Assembly: GCA_964518395.1 (NCBI GenBank)
Contig: CAZFGA010000008.1
Coordinates: 40,699-104,698, forward strand
Source: an uncultured Flavobacterium sp.
Lineage (GTDB): Bacteria; Bacteroidota; Bacteroidia; Flavobacteriales; Flavobacteriaceae
Length of the DNA: 64,000 nt
Direction of reading: 5' to 3'
Both the position numbers and the translations under genes were made by a program. Under the pieces are notes generated by a model that saw nothing but the letters and a program-made list of their open reading frames with translations, ran no database searches and was not told the DNA's origin. Shown here piece after piece: positions 935-39,865 of the stretch. Position 1 is the first letter of the stretch. Every line of letters starts with the position of its first letter.

Positions 935-966
935 ATAAAAAAAGGCTTGTCGTGATGACAAGCCTT
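935..966 (-). terminator. Attenuator-type intrinsic terminator between the leader ORF and trpE
   Basis: Perfect 10-bp stem AAGGCTTGTC/GACAAGCCTT (942-951 and 957-966) with a 5-nt loop. On the minus strand it is followed by a run of 7 U, 18 nt before the trpE ATG. Confidence 0.6.
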
Positions 967-1006
967 ATATATTTGGATTTTTAAAAATACAGATAGCAGG
1001 ATTCGC

Positions 1007-1063
1007 TCACGAAGTTCGACGTAAGTAATTCCACCACCAAGTATTGTTTAAAATGCAGTTCAT
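1007..1063 (-). CDS. Candidate trp leader peptide, 18 aa MNCILNNTWWWNYLRRTS
   Basis: ATG at 1061-1063 and TGA at 1007-1009. Three consecutive TGG codons at 1031-1039. It lies between a -7 box and the terminator hairpin upstream of trpE. Confidence 0.55.
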   Translation of the reverse strand: MNCILNNTWWWNYLRRTS

Positions 1064-1080
1064 ATAGCTGATTAATGAGG

Positions 1081-1088
1081 CAAATGTA
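1081..1088 (-). promoter_or_regulatory. Candidate Bacteroidota -7 box (TAnnTTTG): TACATTTG
   Basis: Reads TACATTTG on the minus strand, 17 nt upstream of the leader-peptide ATG. Confidence 0.45.
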
Positions 1089-4781: not shown

Positions 4782-5285
4782 TTACATATCGTCATATCGT
4801 AAGGCATCATAGCCTAAAAGTCTCCTCCATAAGGCTATCTGTCCGATACAGTTGGCCTCACGGTAAATAATAAAAGTAATCAGCTCATAATAAGTAAGTG
4901 TCATGCCAGGCATCATCTCAAACTTTTCGTCTAGTTTTTGATCCGTTATTTTAGCCAAAAGGTCTTTTAACATCGGGCTGATTTTTTTCCAATCGTCTAA
5001 GAATTCTGATAATGATGGATATTTTATATCGTCTTGAATGCCTTTTCCTTCTTTAAACAATTCGGCTGCTTTTTGTTTTTCAGGATACCCAAGCAGGTTT
5101 GCAATTTCATAACGCTGCTGAACCAAGCTACCAGAAAGCCAAGCTATATGGTTTGCTTTTGTGTCTAATCTTTTGTGGGCATCGTCATCTGAAATTTTTT
5201 CCAAAGCTCTTTCAAAATAGAGCGTCTGCATGTCGTATAAAACAAGCAGGGAAAACATTCTATTGCTTGTGGTTGTGATTTTCAT
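4782..5285 (-). CDS. DinB-fold protein
   Basis: 167 aa, helical. The His-containing blocks (ANHIAWLSG, IYREANCIGQI) resemble the DinB/YfiT four-helix-bundle family. Confidence 0.5.
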   Translation of the reverse strand: MKITTTSNRMFSLLVLYDMQTLYFERALEKISDDDAHKRLDTKANHIAWLSGSLVQQRYEIANLLGYPEKQKAAELFKEGKGIQDDIKYPSLSEFLDDWKKISPMLKDLLAKITDQKLDEKFEMMPGMTLTYYELITFIIYREANCIGQIALWRRLLGYDALRYDDM

Positions 5286-5417
5286 ATCGTTAAATTTTAG
5301 TGTTAAAAATTGAATTAAATATTGTCTTTTATAATGTTTGATAAAATTAATTCAAAAAGCAGTGACGTGTGGAGTGAGTTAAAGTCATTATAAGGGGGGA
5401 TTTAAGACAAAATATTT

Positions 5418-5425
5418 TATATTTG
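5418..5425 (+). promoter_or_regulatory. Candidate -7 box TATATTTG
   Basis: Matches TAnnTTTG, 20 nt upstream of the ATG at 5446. Confidence 0.45.
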
Positions 5426-5445
5426 TTTCTCCTAAAAAACTAGCT

Positions 5446-6408
5446 ATGAAATTAGGTATTTTGCTTACACAAGAACACAGGCTTTTGAGCGTCGCAGCAA
5501 TGCTTGATGTGTTTGAAACCGTTAATAAGTTTTATGTCGAAGATGGGCAGGCTCCTTTTTTTGACATTACGCTTTTGCATATGGATGAGGTGTCACAGAC
5601 CTATTCTGAATACAGTCTGATGCAGCCTGATTCGGAAAGAATTTATGATATTTTACTAATCCCTGCTTTTAAGCATGATATTGTACCAAAAGCAATTTCA
5701 CTCAATATGCAATGGATACAATGGCTACGGCAGCAATATGAAAGAGGAGCTTCCGTTGCGAGTTTTTGCACAGGTGCTTTTCTTTTAGCTTCAACAGGTT
5801 TGCTTGACAACAAGCCGGCAACCACACATATTAATGCAGAATATGCTTTTGCCAATGCATTTCCGGCCGTAAACCTAAAAGTAAATGCAGTCGTTACAGA
5901 AGAAGGAAGAGTATATACAAGCGGTGGTGCTACAAATAGTTTCCATCTGATGTTACGCCTTATTGAAAATTTTTGCAGCAGAAGAATGGCGGTTAGAACC
6001 GCAAAGGTGTTTTCGGTAGATTTGGATAGAAACCAGCAGACCTATTTTGGAACATTCACTCCGGCTGAAGATCATGGTGATGATTTGGTGAAACAGGCAC
6101 AAGATGTCATCAAGAAAAATTTTCGGGAAGCCAATACTATTGAAGAGATTATTACGGATGTTCCTGCCAGTAGAAGAAATCTGGTTAGGCGTTTCAAACA
6201 AGTAACCGGAATTACACCTATAGAATATTTACAGAAAACCAGAATCGAGGCCGCCAAACAAATGTTGGAGCATTCGAGACAGAGCGTCATGGAAGTAATG
6301 TTTGAATCAGGTTATAATGACCTGAAGTCATTTCGAAGCTTATTCAAGAAAAATGTAGGGATGACTCCAACGGCTTACAGGGAAAAATTCAATAATCTTG
6401 TTGCCTGA
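5446..6408 (+). CDS. GlxA-type transcriptional regulator (DJ-1/PfpI domain fused to an AraC HTH)
   Basis: N-terminal amidotransferase-like block SVASFCTGAFLLASTGLL. C-terminal AraC HTH ESGYNDLKSFRSLFKKNVGMTPTAYR. Confidence 0.8.
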   Translation: MKLGILLTQEHRLLSVAAMLDVFETVNKFYVEDGQAPFFDITLLHMDEVSQTYSEYSLMQPDSERIYDILLIPAFKHDIVPKAISLNMQWIQWLRQQYERGASVASFCTGAFLLASTGLLDNKPATTHINAEYAFANAFPAVNLKVNAVVTEEGRVYTSGGATNSFHLMLRLIENFCSRRMAVRTAKVFSVDLDRNQQTYFGTFTPAEDHGDDLVKQAQDVIKKNFREANTIEEIITDVPASRRNLVRRFKQVTGITPIEYLQKTRIEAAKQMLEHSRQSVMEVMFESGYNDLKSFRSLFKKNVGMTPTAYREKFNNLVA

Positions 6409-27547: not shown

Positions 27548-27558
27548 TAAGTTTGTTG

Positions 27559-27639
27559 TGGGGGGAGCAGGATTCGAACCTGCGAAGGTTTCCCAACGGA
27601 TTTACAGTCCGTCCTCGTTGGCCGCTTGAGTATCCCCCC
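27559..27639 (-). tRNA. tRNA-Tyr (anticodon GTA), class II with a long variable arm; CCA not encoded
   Basis: Reverse complement: GGGGGGA-TA-CTCAAGCGGCCAACGAG-G-ACGGA-CTGTAAA-TCCGT-variable arm-GCAGGTTCGAATCCTGC-TCCCCCC-A. It has a 7-bp acceptor stem, a TPsiC loop TTCGAAT and the anticodon loop CT-GTA-AA. Confidence 0.9.
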
Positions 27640-33427: not shown

Positions 33428-33806
33428 CTATTTCTAAGACATTCTGAAGCGTAACAGGTTTTGTAAAATAACCAAGAATCCCATTGTAGGATTTGGACCT
33501 TTCTTTATCGGAATGGGCAATAGAAGAGCTCACAATATAAATCGAGACTTCTTTAGGGAAGATGGTTTTTATCTTATGAAATTGTTCCATAAAATTCCAT
33601 CCGTCCATAACAGGCATCTCGATATCGAGCATAATAATGTCTGGAAATTCCTCAGGTAGATGTACTAATCCCGTTAATCCGTCAATAGCTTCAGCGCCAT
33701 TTGGAAAAGACAGGATTTTGCTTGCCGTTTCTGATTTGTGGATGATTTTTTTGGTTATCGTCTGATAAATAGGGTCATCATCGATAAGACAAATTATCTG
33801 ATTCAT
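33417..33806 (-). CDS. Single-domain (CheY-like) response regulator
   Basis: DDD acidic pocket (LIDDDPIY), phospho-acceptor in IIMLDIEMPVMDG, and conserved SS/K positions. It overlaps the kinase stop by 4 nt. Confidence 0.85.
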   Translation of the reverse strand: MNQIICLIDDDPIYQTITKKIIHKSETASKILSFPNGAEAIDGLTGLVHLPEEFPDIIMLDIEMPVMDGWNFMEQFHKIKTIFPKEVSIYIVSSSIAHSDKERSKSYNGILGYFTKPVTLQNVLEIAKS

Positions 33807-36640
33807 TTAAAGTAGATTTTGAAGGTAGTTCCTATATTGGGTTCGCTTTCAACGGATACACTTCCGCCCATAGCATCGATTTGGTTTTTAGTAATGAAAA
33901 GTCCAATTCCTTTAGAGTCGGGATTTTCGTGAAATGTTTTGTACATCCCGAATAGTTTGTCGCCATATTTTTTCAAGTCAATGCCAAGTCCATTGTCAGA
34001 AATTTCCAAAACAGTTCTGTCATTTTCTGTATAGCTGTTCAGGATAATGACAGCATTGCGCTTAGGATGGCAATAACGGATGGCATTAGAAATAAAATTA
34101 AGCAATATACTTTCCAGATAGGCAGGATTGTAGTGAACAAAGATTTCCGATGATACGTTATTTTTTATAACCGCTTTTTTAAATGCAATCTGCTCAGAAA
34201 CAATATTGATTATCCTGTCAATATTATCTTTTATATTCAGGTTTTCGATAATCAGGTTGATATTGGTCTGAATGTTAACTACTTCATTAAGATTCAGCAT
34301 GGTTTCGTTTAGCGTATTCGAAACATTTTGCAACATTTTGACCAGCTCGTTGCGTTCCTCTTCAGTCTCTGCCGTTTCAATCAAAGTTGATATGGACTGA
34401 ATGTTGCTGGTGTGCGAACGCAAGTTGTGTGAAACGATATAAGAAAAATTCAATAACCTTTTATTCTGTTCTGTAACCAGATCCAGAGAATTACTCAGGT
34501 CATTCTCTGCCTCCTTACTTTTTGTGATGTCAATCATGATACCTTTAAGCGAAACCGGTTTACCATTTTCGTGAATCACATTTACGATATCCCGAATCCA
34601 GAGTATAGAACCGTTTTTGGCAATCATTCTATATTCAAAATCGTATTGCAGGCTTTTCTGGGATTCTATTGCGCAATAATTTACAGCCCAGTGCTTGTCA
34701 TCCGGATGTATGGTATTGGCCCAGAAATTGCCATCGCTACACCATTCTTCTTTGGTATAACCCGTGATTTCTTCGGCTTTTTTATTGACATAGGTAAAGA
34801 CATAGGTGTTATAATCACATTCCCATACAATTCCGTCAATCGTATTGATTAACGATTCCATTTTTTGTTGCGATTGTATCACGATTTCTTCTGAAATCTT
34901 TCGTGCTGTGATATCTTCTGTTGATATGATTATCCGTTCCAGTGTTTCTTCATAGCCAGGCATAACGCTCCAGCGAAGACTGATGTCACGGTATTCGCCA
35001 TCATATTTTTTGACTTTTGAATCGATTGTAAGTCGGGTTTCGCCCTGAGTAATGGCAAGAAGCTGTGCCTTGAAAGAATCCATGGCGTCGTTGTTTAGGA
35101 CATCTCCCAAACGTTGCATAAGGTCTTCCTTTGTTTTAGGATAATGCAATGTCAGGCATTCATTGTTTACATTGATGATTTTTACGAGCGTGATGCATTT
35201 TTGGACTACTTCGGGATGTGCTTCAAAATAAGCTTTTACTTCTTGCCTGCTTTTTCCAATCAGCCTTAATTCTTCCAGATAATTTTTCAGATAAGAGAAG
35301 TCTTCTTCCCACAAGGCAATAGGCGAATCTTCAAAAAGACTTTTGAAGCGTATTTCACTTTTTCGGATAGCATCTTCGGCTTCTTTTTTTGAAGTAATAT
35401 CCTCTACAATCGAAATATGTGAACTTGGTTTTTCTCCTTCTTGCCAAAGAGGCGAATAAGTAATGTTTACCCAAATAAGATTGCCATTTTTATGGATGTA
35501 TCTTTTTTCTATATTGAGCTCTCGGATTTCGCCATTTTTAAGTCTTTCCAGCTGTTTCAGATTGTCCTCGAGATCGTCTTTATAGGTAATGTCTTTGAAG
35601 CTCTTATTTCTCATTTCCTCAAATGTATATCCGAGCATTCGGGAGTACTGTTCGTTTACTTCGATAAGGCATCCGGTTATAGAGTCAACGTGGGCGATAC
35701 CAACGGCAGCCTGATCAAAAATGGATTTGAATTTTATTTCATCATTAAGAATCTTATTCTCCTGTTTCCGAACCAGCAGTTGTAACTCTGCAGGTTTTTT
35801 TAAAACATTGGTTAAAAAAAGAGAAAAGATAAAACAGCACAATATGGTCAATACTAGTGCGGGACGTATTTCGGTAAAAAGCCCATATTTGTTTTTGCTG
35901 ATAAGGTATACTTTCCAATTTCCGTCGGGAATTGACAGCACCTGGAAATATTTATCGCTAAAGTCTTCTTTGTTGGGAAGGAAAAACTCGGTTTGACCCG
36001 TCTTTGGATTTTCTTTTGAAAACTGAAAGTAATATTGGGACTCTTTGATGGAATTTATTCCGGAAGATTTAAGTAAGGTTTCCAGCTTTACGATCACGGC
36101 AGAAAATCCCCAGAATTTTCCTTTTCTATATATAGGAAACCGTCCTATAACTCCAAGTCCGCCTTGTCTTAATTCCAAAGGACCTGCAAAATGGATTTTC
36201 TTTTTTTGAATAGTTTCTAGGGCCTCTTCCTTGACCGATTTTGAATTTAATATGTCATAATTAATGAGGTCAGGGTTATTGGGATACGTATATTTAATCA
36301 CTCCGTTAGGGACTAATTGTACGGCATCAATATTTGGATTGGAATCGACCAGTACTTTTGCCAAAGCATCAAAATTTTCAGGTTTGCCATCCTCATTAAC
36401 GATCATAGCCAAAGAAATTGTTGTCGTTTGGCAGTTTTTAAGCGAATGATTCAGATTTTGCTGTACGACATGGAGAATATTTGACATTTCTCTGTGCCTG
36501 TTTTCCTTGACAACTTCAAAACGTTTTAAAACGATAGGACTAATTAAGGCAAGTAGTATAAGAAAAACTATAAAGGTACTTAATCTGGGCTTTGATATAA
36601 ACCAGCCAGTTATTTTTGACCATTTGTTCTCTATTTTCAT
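33803..36640 (-). CDS. Sensor histidine kinase with an extracytoplasmic sensor domain and several PAS/PAC modules
   Basis: Two TM helices flank a domain of about 230 aa, followed by repeated PAS/PAC blocks. H-box VSHNLRSHTSNI and ATPase boxes SDNGLGID and GIGLFITKNQ. The ORF-track start is a TTG, so I trimmed it to the ATG at 36640 (MKIENKW). Confidence 0.8.
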   Translation of the reverse strand: MKIENKWSKITGWFISKPRLSTFIVFLILLALISPIVLKRFEVVKENRHREMSNILHVVQQNLNHSLKNCQTTTISLAMIVNEDGKPENFDALAKVLVDSNPNIDAVQLVPNGVIKYTYPNNPDLINYDILNSKSVKEEALETIQKKKIHFAGPLELRQGGLGVIGRFPIYRKGKFWGFSAVIVKLETLLKSSGINSIKESQYYFQFSKENPKTGQTEFFLPNKEDFSDKYFQVLSIPDGNWKVYLISKNKYGLFTEIRPALVLTILCCFIFSLFLTNVLKKPAELQLLVRKQENKILNDEIKFKSIFDQAAVGIAHVDSITGCLIEVNEQYSRMLGYTFEEMRNKSFKDITYKDDLEDNLKQLERLKNGEIRELNIEKRYIHKNGNLIWVNITYSPLWQEGEKPSSHISIVEDITSKKEAEDAIRKSEIRFKSLFEDSPIALWEEDFSYLKNYLEELRLIGKSRQEVKAYFEAHPEVVQKCITLVKIINVNNECLTLHYPKTKEDLMQRLGDVLNNDAMDSFKAQLLAITQGETRLTIDSKVKKYDGEYRDISLRWSVMPGYEETLERIIISTEDITARKISEEIVIQSQQKMESLINTIDGIVWECDYNTYVFTYVNKKAEEITGYTKEEWCSDGNFWANTIHPDDKHWAVNYCAIESQKSLQYDFEYRMIAKNGSILWIRDIVNVIHENGKPVSLKGIMIDITKSKEAENDLSNSLDLVTEQNKRLLNFSYIVSHNLRSHTSNIQSISTLIETAETEEERNELVKMLQNVSNTLNETMLNLNEVVNIQTNINLIIENLNIKDNIDRIINIVSEQIAFKKAVIKNNVSSEIFVHYNPAYLESILLNFISNAIRYCHPKRNAVIILNSYTENDRTVLEISDNGLGIDLKKYGDKLFGMYKTFHENPDSKGIGLFITKNQIDAMGGSVSVESEPNIGTTFKIYFK

Positions 36641-36734
36641 CTGGGCTGGAATCTGTTTATTCGGGAGACTAAAATATAAATTAATATTTAATTCTGAAGC
36701 GATTAGCAGGATTTCCGTTAAAGTATAAGGCAAT

Positions 36735-36762
36735 AAAAAAATAGCCCGAGGGCTATTTTTTT
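36735..36762. terminator. Bidirectional terminator after the DUF3037 gene
   Basis: ATAGCC / GGCTAT stem flanked by A6 and T6 runs. Confidence 0.65.
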
Positions 36763-36795
36763 GTAGTTATTTGTTAATAAGTAGATTAGCTTTTT

Positions 36796-37179
36796 TTATA
36801 AAACCAGCTCAGAAAACAAGTGTTCAGAAATTTCTTCCAAATTATTGCATAGTCCGGGATGTGGTCTTGAGGTTTGGATTACGGAACTTCTTACAGCCGT
36901 CATCCAACGGAAGCGAGAAGGGACATCAAATGCCGCAATTGGGCCTCCATCTTTAGCTCCTTGTGCAATTTTTACGAATGCCTGTAGATTTTCTTCCAGC
37001 TGTTCATAATCGAGTTCATCTGAAAAAAGTCCAAGCTTGGTTATGTCTATCTTATAAAGAACTTTGATGTACTGCTCTTTCTTACAGAAGACGATGATTC
37101 CCGTATTGACAAATTCTTCGCGCTCTACCTTAGGCACGATACGAATTACGGCATATTCATATAAGTGTTTGTCTTGCAT
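36796..37179 (-). CDS. DUF3037 family protein
   Basis: 127 aa. N-terminal YEYAVIRIVPKVEREEFVNTGIIVF, characteristic of DUF3037. The start overlaps the kinase 3' end by 23 nt. Confidence 0.7.
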   Translation of the reverse strand: MQDKHLYEYAVIRIVPKVEREEFVNTGIIVFCKKEQYIKVLYKIDITKLGLFSDELDYEQLEENLQAFVKIAQGAKDGGPIAAFDVPSRFRWMTAVRSSVIQTSRPHPGLCNNLEEISEHLFSELVL

Positions 37180-37951
37180 CTTGAGCAGCTTTTATAAAAA
37201 TTTCTGAATTGGCTAAACGTGTAATCAAAAAACTGGAATAGGTATTTCGTATCTGTTCCGGCGTTTCTTCCGAACCTTCCCATTGCAACCATTCTTCAGG
37301 AACTAAAGAAACAATGGAACGAATCTTATCTTCTGTAAGGAGAGATTTAAATTCTTTATCTGTTTCTTCCAATCGCGAAGCTTTTGGCAATAAGACGTGG
37401 TCTTTAATCAAAGCAAATGGGCTTTTGGCGCTATTTTCCCAATTGCTCCATGAATGGTGGAAATACAAGCAGGCACCGTGATCAATCAGCCATAATTCTT
37501 TATGCCATATAAGCATGTTCGTATTCCTGAACGTTCTGTCTACATTGGTTATAAAAGCATCCAGCCATACAATTTTTGAAGCCAGTTCGGCATCTGTTTC
37601 TGTAACAACAGGATCAAAAGTGATGGCTCCGGAAAGAAAGTGAAGCGCAAGGTTTAGTCCCTGGCTTCCTTGCAATAAGTCTTGAATTTCCTCATCGCCT
37701 TCAGTTCTTCCAAAAGCTTCGTCAAGATTTGCGAATACTAATTCCGGTACCGCTAATCCAAGTGCTCTGGCAATTTCGCCTCCAATTAATTCGGCTATTA
37801 ATGCTTTTACGCCATGTCCGGCACCTTTGAATTTTAATACATATTTAAAACCGTCATCTGCATCTGCAAGAGCAGGAAGCGAGCCTCCTTCCCTCAGAGG
37901 AGAAATATAGCGGGTGACGTTGACCGTTCGTAACGAAAATGGATTATCCAT
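37157..37951 (-). CDS. HipA-like serine/threonine kinase family protein
   Basis: Gly-rich KFKGAGHGVKAL, catalytic-loop-like FITNVDRTFRNTNMLI, and the DFG-equivalent WLIDHGA. I trimmed the start to the ATG at 37951 because the upstream codons are a terminator hairpin plus a -7 box. Confidence 0.7.
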   Translation of the reverse strand: MDNPFSLRTVNVTRYISPLREGGSLPALADADDGFKYVLKFKGAGHGVKALIAELIGGEIARALGLAVPELVFANLDEAFGRTEGDEEIQDLLQGSQGLNLALHFLSGAITFDPVVTETDAELASKIVWLDAFITNVDRTFRNTNMLIWHKELWLIDHGACLYFHHSWSNWENSAKSPFALIKDHVLLPKASRLEETDKEFKSLLTEDKIRSIVSLVPEEWLQWEGSEETPEQIRNTYSSFLITRLANSEIFIKAAQDARQTLI

Positions 37952-37968
37952 AAATTTTTTCTTTGATA

Positions 37969-37976
37969 CAAAAATA
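37969..37976 (-). promoter_or_regulatory. Candidate -7 box TATTTTTG for the kinase/DUF3037 pair
   Basis: Minus strand, 17 nt upstream of the ATG at 37951. Confidence 0.45.
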
Positions 37977-37996
37977 GCGCATCGAAACGGATGCGC
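37977..37996 (-). terminator. Hairpin terminator after the DoxX gene
   Basis: GCGCATC-CGTTTC-GATGCGC, followed on the minus strand by TATTTTTG. Confidence 0.55.
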
Positions 37997-38044
37997 CATT
38001 TTTTTGAAAACATATTTTTAAAGCTCCCATAAGGAGTTGCCTGT

Positions 38045-39107: not shown

Positions 39108-39260
39108 ATGGGACGACGCAATGAGGCCAATAGGCTGGAACATAAAAAGAAAACAGACCAGAAAAAGAAGCGGGAGCAGGACGCTGAAAAGCAGAGAAAA
39201 AATAAGCTGAAAGAAATTATCAAAAAAAATAATGCTTCAAATGAAGCACAGACAGAATAA
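39108..39260 (+). CDS. Candidate 50-aa Lys/Arg-rich small protein (below the ORF-track size cutoff)
   Basis: Translation MGRRNEANRLEHKKKTDQKKKREQDAEKQRKNKLKEIIKKNNASNEAQTE. It is the first substantial ORF after the -7 box. The stop lies 1 nt before the ATG at 39262. Confidence 0.3.
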   Translation: MGRRNEANRLEHKKKTDQKKKREQDAEKQRKNKLKEIIKKNNASNEAQTE

Positions 39261-39261
39261 A

Positions 39262-39480
39262 ATGGATAGCAAAGCCTTCGAAGAATTAAAGAAAGACGTA
39301 CAGGAAATCATTGACTTGTTAGCAAGTAAACAAAACAAAGAAGCTAATAATAAATTGGTTGAAGTAAGCGAAAATTTAGATGAATTATTAGACCATGCCG
39401 AAGAAGATGAGGATCTTGTCGAACTCGGTCGTTATATGGTATTGCTGAACCAGCTGCATCAAAAGATTAATGCCGAATAA
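39262..39480 (+). CDS. Small acidic helical protein, unknown function
   Basis: MDSKAFEELKKDVQEIIDLL...EEDEDLVELGRYMVLLNQLHQKINAE. The ORF track starts it at 39232, so either start is possible. Confidence 0.5.
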   Translation: MDSKAFEELKKDVQEIIDLLASKQNKEANNKLVEVSENLDELLDHAEEDEDLVELGRYMVLLNQLHQKINAE

Positions 39481-39481
39481 T

Positions 39482-39865
39482 ATGGCAGCGCTAATCTGTC
39501 CTTGTGGTTCGGGAATGTTATTTGCCCAATGTTGCGAACCTTTCATCAAAGAAATTCATAATCCTCCAACTGCTGAAAAACTAATGCGGTCACGTTACAG
39601 TGCCTATGCTGTACAGGCGGCTGACTATCTAATTGCAACTACACATAGTTCTACAAGAAAGAACCATTCAAAATCGGATATATTGGAATGGTCCAAATCC
39701 AACCAATGGCTGAAACTGGAAGTATTGGAGGTGACAGAGAATACAGTAGAATTTAAAGCCTATTTTTTAGACAGCCATCTCAAAGCACAAATGCACCATG
39801 AAAAATCATTTTTCAGGAAAGAAAATGAGAAGTGGTTTTATGTAGATGGTGAATTTTTCGAATAA
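39482..39865 (+). CDS. ychJ: YchJ family protein (N-terminal SEC-C metal-binding motif plus NTF2-like domain)
   Basis: CPCGSGMLFAQCC, then LMRSRYSAYAVQAADYLIATTH and KWFYVDGE, collinear with E. coli YchJ. The alternative start at 39470 would overlap the upstream stop. Confidence 0.7.
   Translation: MAALICPCGSGMLFAQCCEPFIKEIHNPPTAEKLMRSRYSAYAVQAADYLIATTHSSTRKNHSKSDILEWSKSNQWLKLEVLEVTENTVEFKAYFLDSHLKAQMHHEKSFFRKENEKWFYVDGEFFE

Follow-up and report, generated by a model that had tools for sequence, protein, structure and literature searches.

A HipA-like kinase gene overlapping a DUF3037 gene on a Flavobacterium chromosome: a pair assigned by sequence to a short-partner clade of the HipAD family

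What does a HipA-like kinase do when the gene next to it encodes a protein of the uncharacterized family DUF3037 rather than a HipB antitoxin with its helix-turn-helix (HTH) domain? The question is raised by two overlapping genes in a 64,000-nucleotide (nt) stretch of contig CAZFGA010000008.1 from an uncultured Flavobacterium sp.; this whole stretch is called the window here, all positions follow its numbering, and its minus strand is the coding strand of the pair. The first gene (37157–37951, minus strand) encodes a HipA_2-family kinase of 264 amino acids (aa), and the second (36796–37179, minus strand) a stand-alone, acidic DUF3037 protein of 127 aa. A first-pass annotation, made from the letters alone, had described a self-contained two-gene unit with the kinase first and no HTH antitoxin, and this description is borne out, the upstream gene being a DoxX_2 gene that lies past a hairpin. 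Kinase and DUF3037 gene form a genuine, co-conserved, overlapping two-gene unit. On sequence grounds it is a chromosomal member of the HipA_2-kinase/DUF3037 family that includes HipAD (DS-6, PDC-M66), placed there in a separate short-partner clade. This kind of pair has already been published; the conserved short-partner branch with its half-length partner is the new aspect. We favour, with a probability of roughly 55%, a kinase-plus-neutraliser module homologous to HipAD, in which a growth-arresting kinase would be held in check by the DUF3037 protein.

The kinase matches the Pfam family PF20613 (HipA_2) with 73.1 bits (cutoff 27; E=2.7e-20), its residues 16–238 covering positions 5–223 of the 240 in the model, as well as the PADLOC model PDC-M66A (4.2e-26) and phrog_3162 of PHROGs (9e-31). 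The partner matches PF11236 (DUF3037) over its full length, positions 1–118 of 118, with 141.5 bits (cutoff 22.6; 1.8e-41), while the PADLOC model PDC-M66B (3.5e-10) is reached only at positions 3–128 of 281, and phrog_5137 is covered only at positions 4–129 of 279. The earlier naming of a HipA-like kinase and a DUF3037 protein therefore holds, although the check with hidden Markov models gave no match to HipA_C; indeed, no Pfam match of the kinase to the HipA_N or HipA_C domains was found. The protein-kinase clan CL0016 of Pfam holds both PF07804 and PF20613, and KINtaro merges PF20613 with HipA_C. Neither protein has an NCBIfam model. The motifs read in the first pass are intact: the Gly-rich loop KFKGAGHGVK spans K40–K49, the catalytic D138 lies in NVDRTFRNTN, and DHG occupies positions 157–159, with their core residues (K40, K42, G43, G45, D138, R139, N143, N145, D157, H158 and G159) invariant among 30 homologues. 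Several homologous kinases bear the misleading source name 'aminotransferase class I and II' (P0136, P0139, P0209).

Experiments on relatives of the pair give these motifs a functional frame. In the Retron-Sda1 operon of an environmental isolate, the HipA-like/DUF3037 pair protects against phage Bas51 without the retron reverse transcriptase or non-coding RNA; deletion of the kinase abolished this defence, deletion of the DUF3037 gene was toxic, and the partner also carries a C-terminal region (PMC12548924). The same report finds DUF3037 strongly associated with HipA-like proteins and notes that the pair is called PDC-M66 by PADLOC (PMC12548924), in which it is listed as a candidate. DefensePredictor led to the validation of the Escherichia coli system DS-6, renamed HipAD after Brenes and Laub 2025, in which DS-6A is the kinase and DS-6B consists of DUF3037 plus DUF1829 (PMC13092281). 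The catalytic mutant D139A of DS-6A, given with both sequences in the supplement, loses phage defence, and AlphaFold3 predicts a DS-6 A–B complex (interface predicted template-modelling score, ipTM, 0.76–0.79) along with weaker DNA binding by DS-6B (PMC13092281). The E. coli phage PhiR5_1 carries exactly the DS-6 genes, adjoining cI and annotated 'HipA toxin' and 'HipD antitoxin'. The first-pass statement that the pairing had never been demonstrated experimentally is thus out of date (PMC12548924, PMC13092281), and its idea of a toxin–antitoxin or phage-defence module has been shown for these relatives, not for the clade of the window pair.

How far can these results be carried over to the window pair? 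The window kinase and DS-6A share 31% identity over 230 aa (E=4e-16), with D138 aligned to D139; since the motifs are intact and the catalytic Asp is aligned to a residue that is essential in DS-6A, the sequence comparison supports a catalytically competent kinase. The window partner is 23% identical to residues 7–125 of DS-6B (E=7e-8). Because loss of the partner is toxic in one related system and an A–B complex is predicted in the other, the DUF3037 protein is, by homology, probably the binding partner and neutraliser of the kinase. When short and long partners are aligned, P16, E19, E22, F23, N25, G27 and F90 are invariant, and Y9, R13, E21, S99 and S104 nearly so. An AlphaFold2 model of the partner is confident (predicted local distance difference test score, pLDDT, 92.6) and displays an alpha/beta domain in which the link between beta1 and beta2 carries the conserved acidic motif. 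With an isoelectric point of 5.4, the window partner differs from DS-6B, both halves of which are basic, and because the basic C-terminal half of HipD is absent, it is unlikely to bind DNA or to autoregulate the operon. Among the BFVD models, that of the partner matches only four viral proteins, uncharacterised or unnamed. Fusions of kinase and DUF3037, which would have served as Rosetta-stone evidence, were sought and none was found, the long hits P0121, P0444, P0485 and P0491 being internal duplications or carrying unrelated tails. Some DUF3037 proteins of 127 aa (P0057, P0068, P0087) are misleadingly named 'predicted patatin/cPLA2 family phospholipase' by JGI.

The pairing is firmly kept in related genomes. 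Relatives were taken as the best 80 of at least 569 confirmed matching stretches, nearly all from Flavobacterium, the closest among the matches listed being F. microcysteis (98%). In all 80 loci the pair is intact, a 127-aa partner with an ATG start following directly downstream of the kinase, so that the co-conservation anticipated in the first pass is seen throughout. The 3′ end of the kinase gene overlaps the 5′ end of the DUF3037 gene by 23 nt, out of frame (37157–37179, minus strand); an overlap is present in every one of the 80 loci, with a length of 23 nt in 34 and of 11 nt in 46. The N terminus of the partner, MQDKHLYEYAVIR, is kept in all short homologues, and Y9 and R13 even in distant ones, so the 23-nt overlap, claimed from the start, is genuine. 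Such an overlap suggests translational coupling of the two genes. The start of the kinase is likewise indicated by its homologues: the open reading frame (ORF), which stops at 37157, could begin at an alternative ATG at 37999 that adjoins the upstream hairpin and would give 280 aa, yet homologues from many species have 260–264 aa and align from residue 1, so the ATG at 37951, giving 264 aa, is the likely start.

One thing that distinguishes the window pair from its tested relatives is the partner. In a comparison of kinases from 13 loci, two groups emerge that agree with partner length in all loci but one. Those of the short-partner group (window, Parabacteroides, Bacteroides, Chondrinema and Streptomyces), which spans two phyla, are 40–77% identical to one another and 16–26% identical to those of the long-partner group; the latter, from phage and plasmid loci, are 27–46% identical among themselves apart from two outliers (a pair at 76% and one pair at 46%). 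The exception is the viral contig L096 (IMGVR_UViG_3300005086_000010, 5237–6366), which has a DS-6-type kinase 44% identical to DS-6A followed by a partner ORF of only 127 aa that aligns with residues 1–126 of DS-6B; this ORF represents either a HipD that was truncated or, in a phage setting, a short form of independent origin. The long partner forms at least 121 clusters at 90% identity, a lower bound because the search reaches only relatives that share exact five-residue words with DS-6B, and occurs in Enterobacterales, Pseudomonas, Idiomarina and sphingomonads; long-partner pairs adjoin cI in a lambdoid phage, are flanked by IS91 copies on conjugative P. syringae plasmids, and occur on 11 IMG/VR contigs. 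The window partner is matched by more than 3,600 clusters at 90% identity, and DUF3037 as a family comes to 1,188 representatives when grouped at 50% identity; of the 150 nearest, the full-length matches mostly have 125–137 aa, and many others are shorter fragments.

The short-partner pairs reach well beyond Flavobacterium. The window kinase is 72% identical to that of Parabacteroides, 69% to that of Bacteroides and 60% to that of Chondrinema (Cytophagales), each with a short partner and metabolic neighbours, and 43% identical to kinases of the actinomycetes Streptomyces and Nonomuraea, while no close relative of it was found in 2.9 million viral contigs. In Streptomyces sp. 2P-4 (L086, NZ_CP095012.1, 5939–12118) the pair lies between genes for PPTase and crotonyl-CoA carboxylase/reductase (ccrA), with a large polyketide synthase (PKS) gene and facT, for elfamycin efflux, at its side. 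Because of this elfamycin context, a connection with antibiotic biosynthesis was considered; it was rejected as not general, other actinomycete loci having unrelated neighbours. Streptomyces nigrescens SNP1 (L102, NZ_AP026074.1, 7653–9491) has a short-clade HipA_2 kinase, 43% identical to that of the window, that is followed by a TetR-family gene.

The short-partner pair also evolves slowly and, in most loci, in a stable setting. The same-strand upstream gene encodes NAD(P)H-hydrate dehydratase (nnrD) in 61 of the 80 loci, and loci of this type have gcvT, the tail-specific protease gene tsp and yebC further upstream and a GNAT gene downstream. The lineage of the window is rearranged: L005 keeps DoxX_2, DinB_2 and YchJ upstream, L006 and L011 keep only YchJ and a small ORF, and a PAS histidine kinase lies downstream in all three. 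Over 51 syntenic loci, the median pairwise protein identity of the kinase is 92.7%, to be compared with 97.9% for YebC, 91.7% for GcvT, 83.5% for the DUF3037 protein, 82.0% for the tail-specific protease, 78.4% for GNAT and 73.7% for NnrD. Divergence of the kinase follows that of its neighbours (Spearman rho 0.80–0.89, with 0.73–0.84 among the neighbours themselves), and between the window and L005 the ratio of non-synonymous to synonymous substitution rates (dN/dS) comes to 0.023 for the kinase, lower than for any gene around it (0.056 for the partner, 0.05–0.08 for neighbouring genes). The short-partner clade, whose partner has a single domain, is thus distinct and slowly evolving, and its divergence keeps pace with that of neighbouring chromosomal genes. 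The possibility, raised in the first pass, that the pair sits in defence islands elsewhere finds no backing in these loci, its neighbours being housekeeping or sensory genes with nnrD upstream in most loci; that annotation had overlooked the half-length partner, the slow evolution in step with neighbouring genes and the housekeeping or sensory context.

If the pair is a kinase-plus-neutraliser module, it might work as follows. The two genes would be transcribed from their own −7-box promoter and translated in a fixed ratio by way of the conserved 11- or 23-nt overlap. The 127-aa DUF3037 protein would then bind the 264-aa kinase, whose motifs and alignment to the essential residue of DS-6A support its competence, and keep it inactive, as homology suggests; upon loss or displacement of the partner, the kinase could phosphorylate a cellular target and arrest growth. 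Slow evolution, divergence in step with the neighbours and a non-mobile context make it more likely that such a module would serve Flavobacterium as a built-in growth switch, triggered by stress or infection, than as a recently acquired defence cassette.

Several points weigh against this explanation. The experimental support comes from long-partner relatives only. The model of the DUF3037 protein has no match in the Protein Data Bank (PDB) at E≤0.001 (best E-value 0.69, top template-modelling (TM) score about 0.2), and a fold without a PDB match means that structure lends no support to an inhibitor role. The AlphaFold2 model of the kinase, built on a shallow alignment, is weak (pLDDT 66, predicted TM score 0.71), its pLDDT falling below 50 over the catalytic region. 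No DUF3037 gene was detectable in the 16.7-kb locus of S. nigrescens SNP1, which leaves an orphan kinase on a Streptomyces replicon and implies that the free kinase may be tolerated. Finally, slow change, a stable chromosomal position and divergence along with the neighbours are unusual for toxin–antitoxin or defence modules, and fit a housekeeping role equally well. The role of the window pair may be defence, stress arrest or housekeeping signalling, the last being a serious rival.

This rival takes two related forms. In one, which we regard as a tentative possibility, the short-partner pair is a regulatory kinase module of great age, handed down vertically in Bacteroidota and present also in actinomycetes, with a core physiological role, and HipAD arose from it when DUF3037 gained a C-terminal DNA-binding or sensor domain and the pair became mobile. 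In the other, about as likely, the pair is a housekeeping signalling pair in which a regulated, non-toxic Ser/Thr kinase of core physiology is joined by DUF3037 as its regulatory subunit, adaptor or substrate, HipAD again being a derived, mobilised offshoot. A kinase as conserved as GcvT, with the lowest dN/dS around, a divergence that follows the chromosomal neighbours and a position that most Flavobacterium keep, behind nnrD and close to gcvT, tsp and yebC, is what such a pair would be expected to have; so is the recurrence of the kinase with a short partner among metabolic genes at 69–72% identity in Bacteroidales, 60% in Cytophagales and 43% in actinomycetes, and its absence from the viral contigs scanned. 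The nearly invariant S99 and S104 of the partner could, speculatively, be phospho-acceptors. Yet the pair is homologous to a system with a toxin-like kinase and a neutraliser-like partner, and the partner is the only functionally linked gene that accompanies the kinase across phyla. Nor does conservation alone exclude a toxin–antitoxin system, since conserved chromosomal Hip-type systems are known: HipBST is described as highly conserved across Legionella (PMC10653801).

It is unlikely that the window pair works against phages by abortive infection, as the functional equal of HipAD/DS-6 with a shorter partner. The homology to DS-6A and DS-6B in the same gene order and the matches to the PDC-M66A and PDC-M66B models speak for it, as does L096: should its short partner be genuine, the N-terminal domain alone may suffice. 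However, the window partner is without the C-terminal half found in DS-6/HipD and, L096 excepted, in the plasmid and viral relatives examined, the Sda1 partner likewise having a C-terminal region; the pair is not in a defence island, prophage or plasmid; and it has neither the patchy distribution and fast divergence of the long-partner clade nor close relatives on viral contigs. A small-molecule or lipid kinase with an accessory protein, which would serve metabolism or resistance instead of phosphorylating proteins, is very improbable. In its favour are fold matches to macrolide and aminoglycoside phosphotransferases and PI3/PI4 kinases, a weak match to PF00454 (PI3_PI4_kinase) and one Streptomyces pair that neighbours a gene for elfamycin efflux. 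Against it, the HipA-like protein kinase CtkA gives the best fold match, with a probability of 0.98–0.99 and the others at 0.25 or less, the other actinomycete contexts are unrelated to biosynthesis, and toxicity in relatives points to a cellular protein target.

The fold searches behind these statements should be read with the quality of the kinase model in mind. Its best PDB matches are CtkA chains, with a probability of 0.91–0.99 and a TM score of only 0.34–0.42, and HipA (3tpv) appears at E=1, other protein-kinase-like enzymes likewise at non-significant scores; the phosphotransferase and PI3/PI4 kinase matches do not exceed a probability of 0.25. For neither protein did sequence or profile searches bring up a PDB chain, and no solved HipA was matched. 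We also considered whether DUF3037 might take the place of the N-terminal HipA subdomain that is missing, the part played by HipS in HipBST, and rejected the analogy, the confident partner model being without a PDB match; this negative assumes that the published HipBST structures are in the PDB copy searched. Structural studies of HipBST have been published (PMC9325769 and PMC10627512).

The flanks of the window pair agree with an independent unit. Upstream, a hairpin (37977–37996, minus strand; GCGCATC-CGTTTC-GATGCGC, then a T-run) that is seen on reading the sequence and in a terminator-like scan has a stem of 7 bp, 5 of them G-C, and a loop of 6 nt, and is probably the terminator of the DoxX_2 gene upstream. 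It is followed by a putative −7 box, TATTTTTG (37969–37976, minus strand), whose last base lies 17 nt ahead of the kinase ATG and which would act as the promoter of the pair; it fits TAnnTTTG, which we take to be the Bacteroidota −7 promoter consensus, and in 73 of 79 related loci this motif likewise lies in the 120 nt ahead of the kinase. Hairpin, box and start codon are placed where the first pass had put them. Downstream, a perfect palindromic hairpin, A7-TAGCC-loop-GGCTA-T7, closes the unit at 36733–36764 by sequence reading and the same scan; the first pass had given it as a bidirectional terminator at 36735–36762, and while the hairpin is there, 'bidirectional' is a purely structural term, the gene beyond it, for a PAS histidine kinase (36640–33803), lying on the same strand as the pair. 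Another terminator-like hairpin, of 13 pairs on the plus strand (37233–37261) inside the kinase gene and about 55 nt upstream of the DUF3037 start, was set aside as probably due to chance, its G-T pairs becoming mismatches in the mRNA strand.

Around the pair, the window holds DoxX_2, DinB_2, YchJ, two-component sensors and similar genes, with no defence, integrase or transposase gene within 10 kb, no anomaly in GC content at the locus and no Rfam element there. The only tRNA gene of the window, tRNA-Tyr (GTA) at 27558–27639 (minus strand), is about 9 kb away, so there is no sign of an integration site. A foreign origin was considered and rejected, GC content being unremarkable and both a nearby tRNA and an Rfam element being absent. 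Downstream of the pair (33803–36640, minus strand, onward; 10540–15771 in L001), a CHASE/PAS sensor histidine kinase and a stand-alone response regulator are followed by a secreted Endonuclease_1 protein with a Por_Secre_tail, a type IX secretion signal. An acidic ORF of 82 aa (39232–39480, plus strand), partly overlapping 39108–39260, lies directly upstream of and overlaps a YchJ-like gene (39470–39865); it is kept in L005 (96%), L006 (69%) and L011 (74%), has no Pfam match on record, and may be a conserved small partner of YchJ. Further away, the segment at 957–1083 (minus strand) matches the Rfam family of the Bacteroid-trp tryptophan peptide leader RNA with 58 bits, against a gathering score of 49.

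HipA-like kinases with DUF3037 partners were validated as a defence system only recently (2025–2026), and the mobile form that was tested is a minority among the relatives sampled, about 121 long-partner clusters from a word-limited search against more than 3,600 short ones at 90% identity. The short-form pair, strictly conserved and slow to evolve, occurs across Bacteroidota, gut Bacteroides and Parabacteroides among them, and also in actinomycetes; this clade could bring to light the ancestral function of the family as well as its minimal neutralising domain. If the short form proves toxic and neutralisable, it provides the kinase-binding domain of DUF3037 in its minimal form; if it proves non-toxic, the family has a core cellular function from which defence was derived. 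Should the reading as an ancient module be true, a housekeeping kinase switch would have been recruited into immunity or, in reverse, a defence toxin–antitoxin system would have been domesticated into a core gene. Genetic tools exist for both Flavobacterium and Bacteroides, which, if the short form is indeed toxic and neutralisable, makes the search for a substrate tractable.

The window pair can be set beside the Hip systems already described. With canonical HipBA of E. coli K-12 it shares a kinase of the HipA-like branch of the protein-kinase-like superfamily and a small adjacent partner gene. Yet the window kinase has 264 aa as against about 440, with N-terminal domains, in canonical HipBA, HipB with its HTH is missing, the gene order is reversed, and the gene upstream is DoxX_2, beyond a terminator hairpin. 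Closer in build are HipBST and the short Hip kinases HipG, HipI, HipJ and HipM, which, in the survey by Gerdes et al. 2021 (PMC8262856), are likewise core-only kinases with a separate small potential neutraliser, some of these systems placing the partner downstream as the window unit does. Nothing resembling the DUF3037 partner was found by a term search of that survey (PMC8262856); unlike HipBST, the window unit has a partner that is not HipS-like and no third gene for an HTH protein.

The nearest system is HipAD/DS-6, an E. coli prophage system made up of the kinase WP_000389051 and the HipD protein WP_000210934. The two differ in the size and charge of the partner, which has 127 aa and is acidic in the window, ending where the C-terminal half of DS-6B starts, whereas HipD is basic, has about 270–280 aa and includes a DUF1829-like or DNA-binding-like C-terminal half of about 150 aa. 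They differ also in the overlap, 23 or 11 nt in window-type pairs versus 4 nt in HipAD/DS-6, and in context, the window pair being chromosomal among housekeeping genes while HipAD relatives adjoin cI in a phage or sit on conjugative plasmids with IS91 copies on either side; the window-type pair, moreover, evolves much more slowly than HipAD-type systems. What they have in common is a kinase gene that comes first, a DUF3037 gene that follows directly downstream and overlaps it, as in PhiR5_1, where the order is likewise kinase then partner, the absence of an HTH HipB from both, and partners that share the invariant motif P-x2-E-x-EEF-x-N-x-G.

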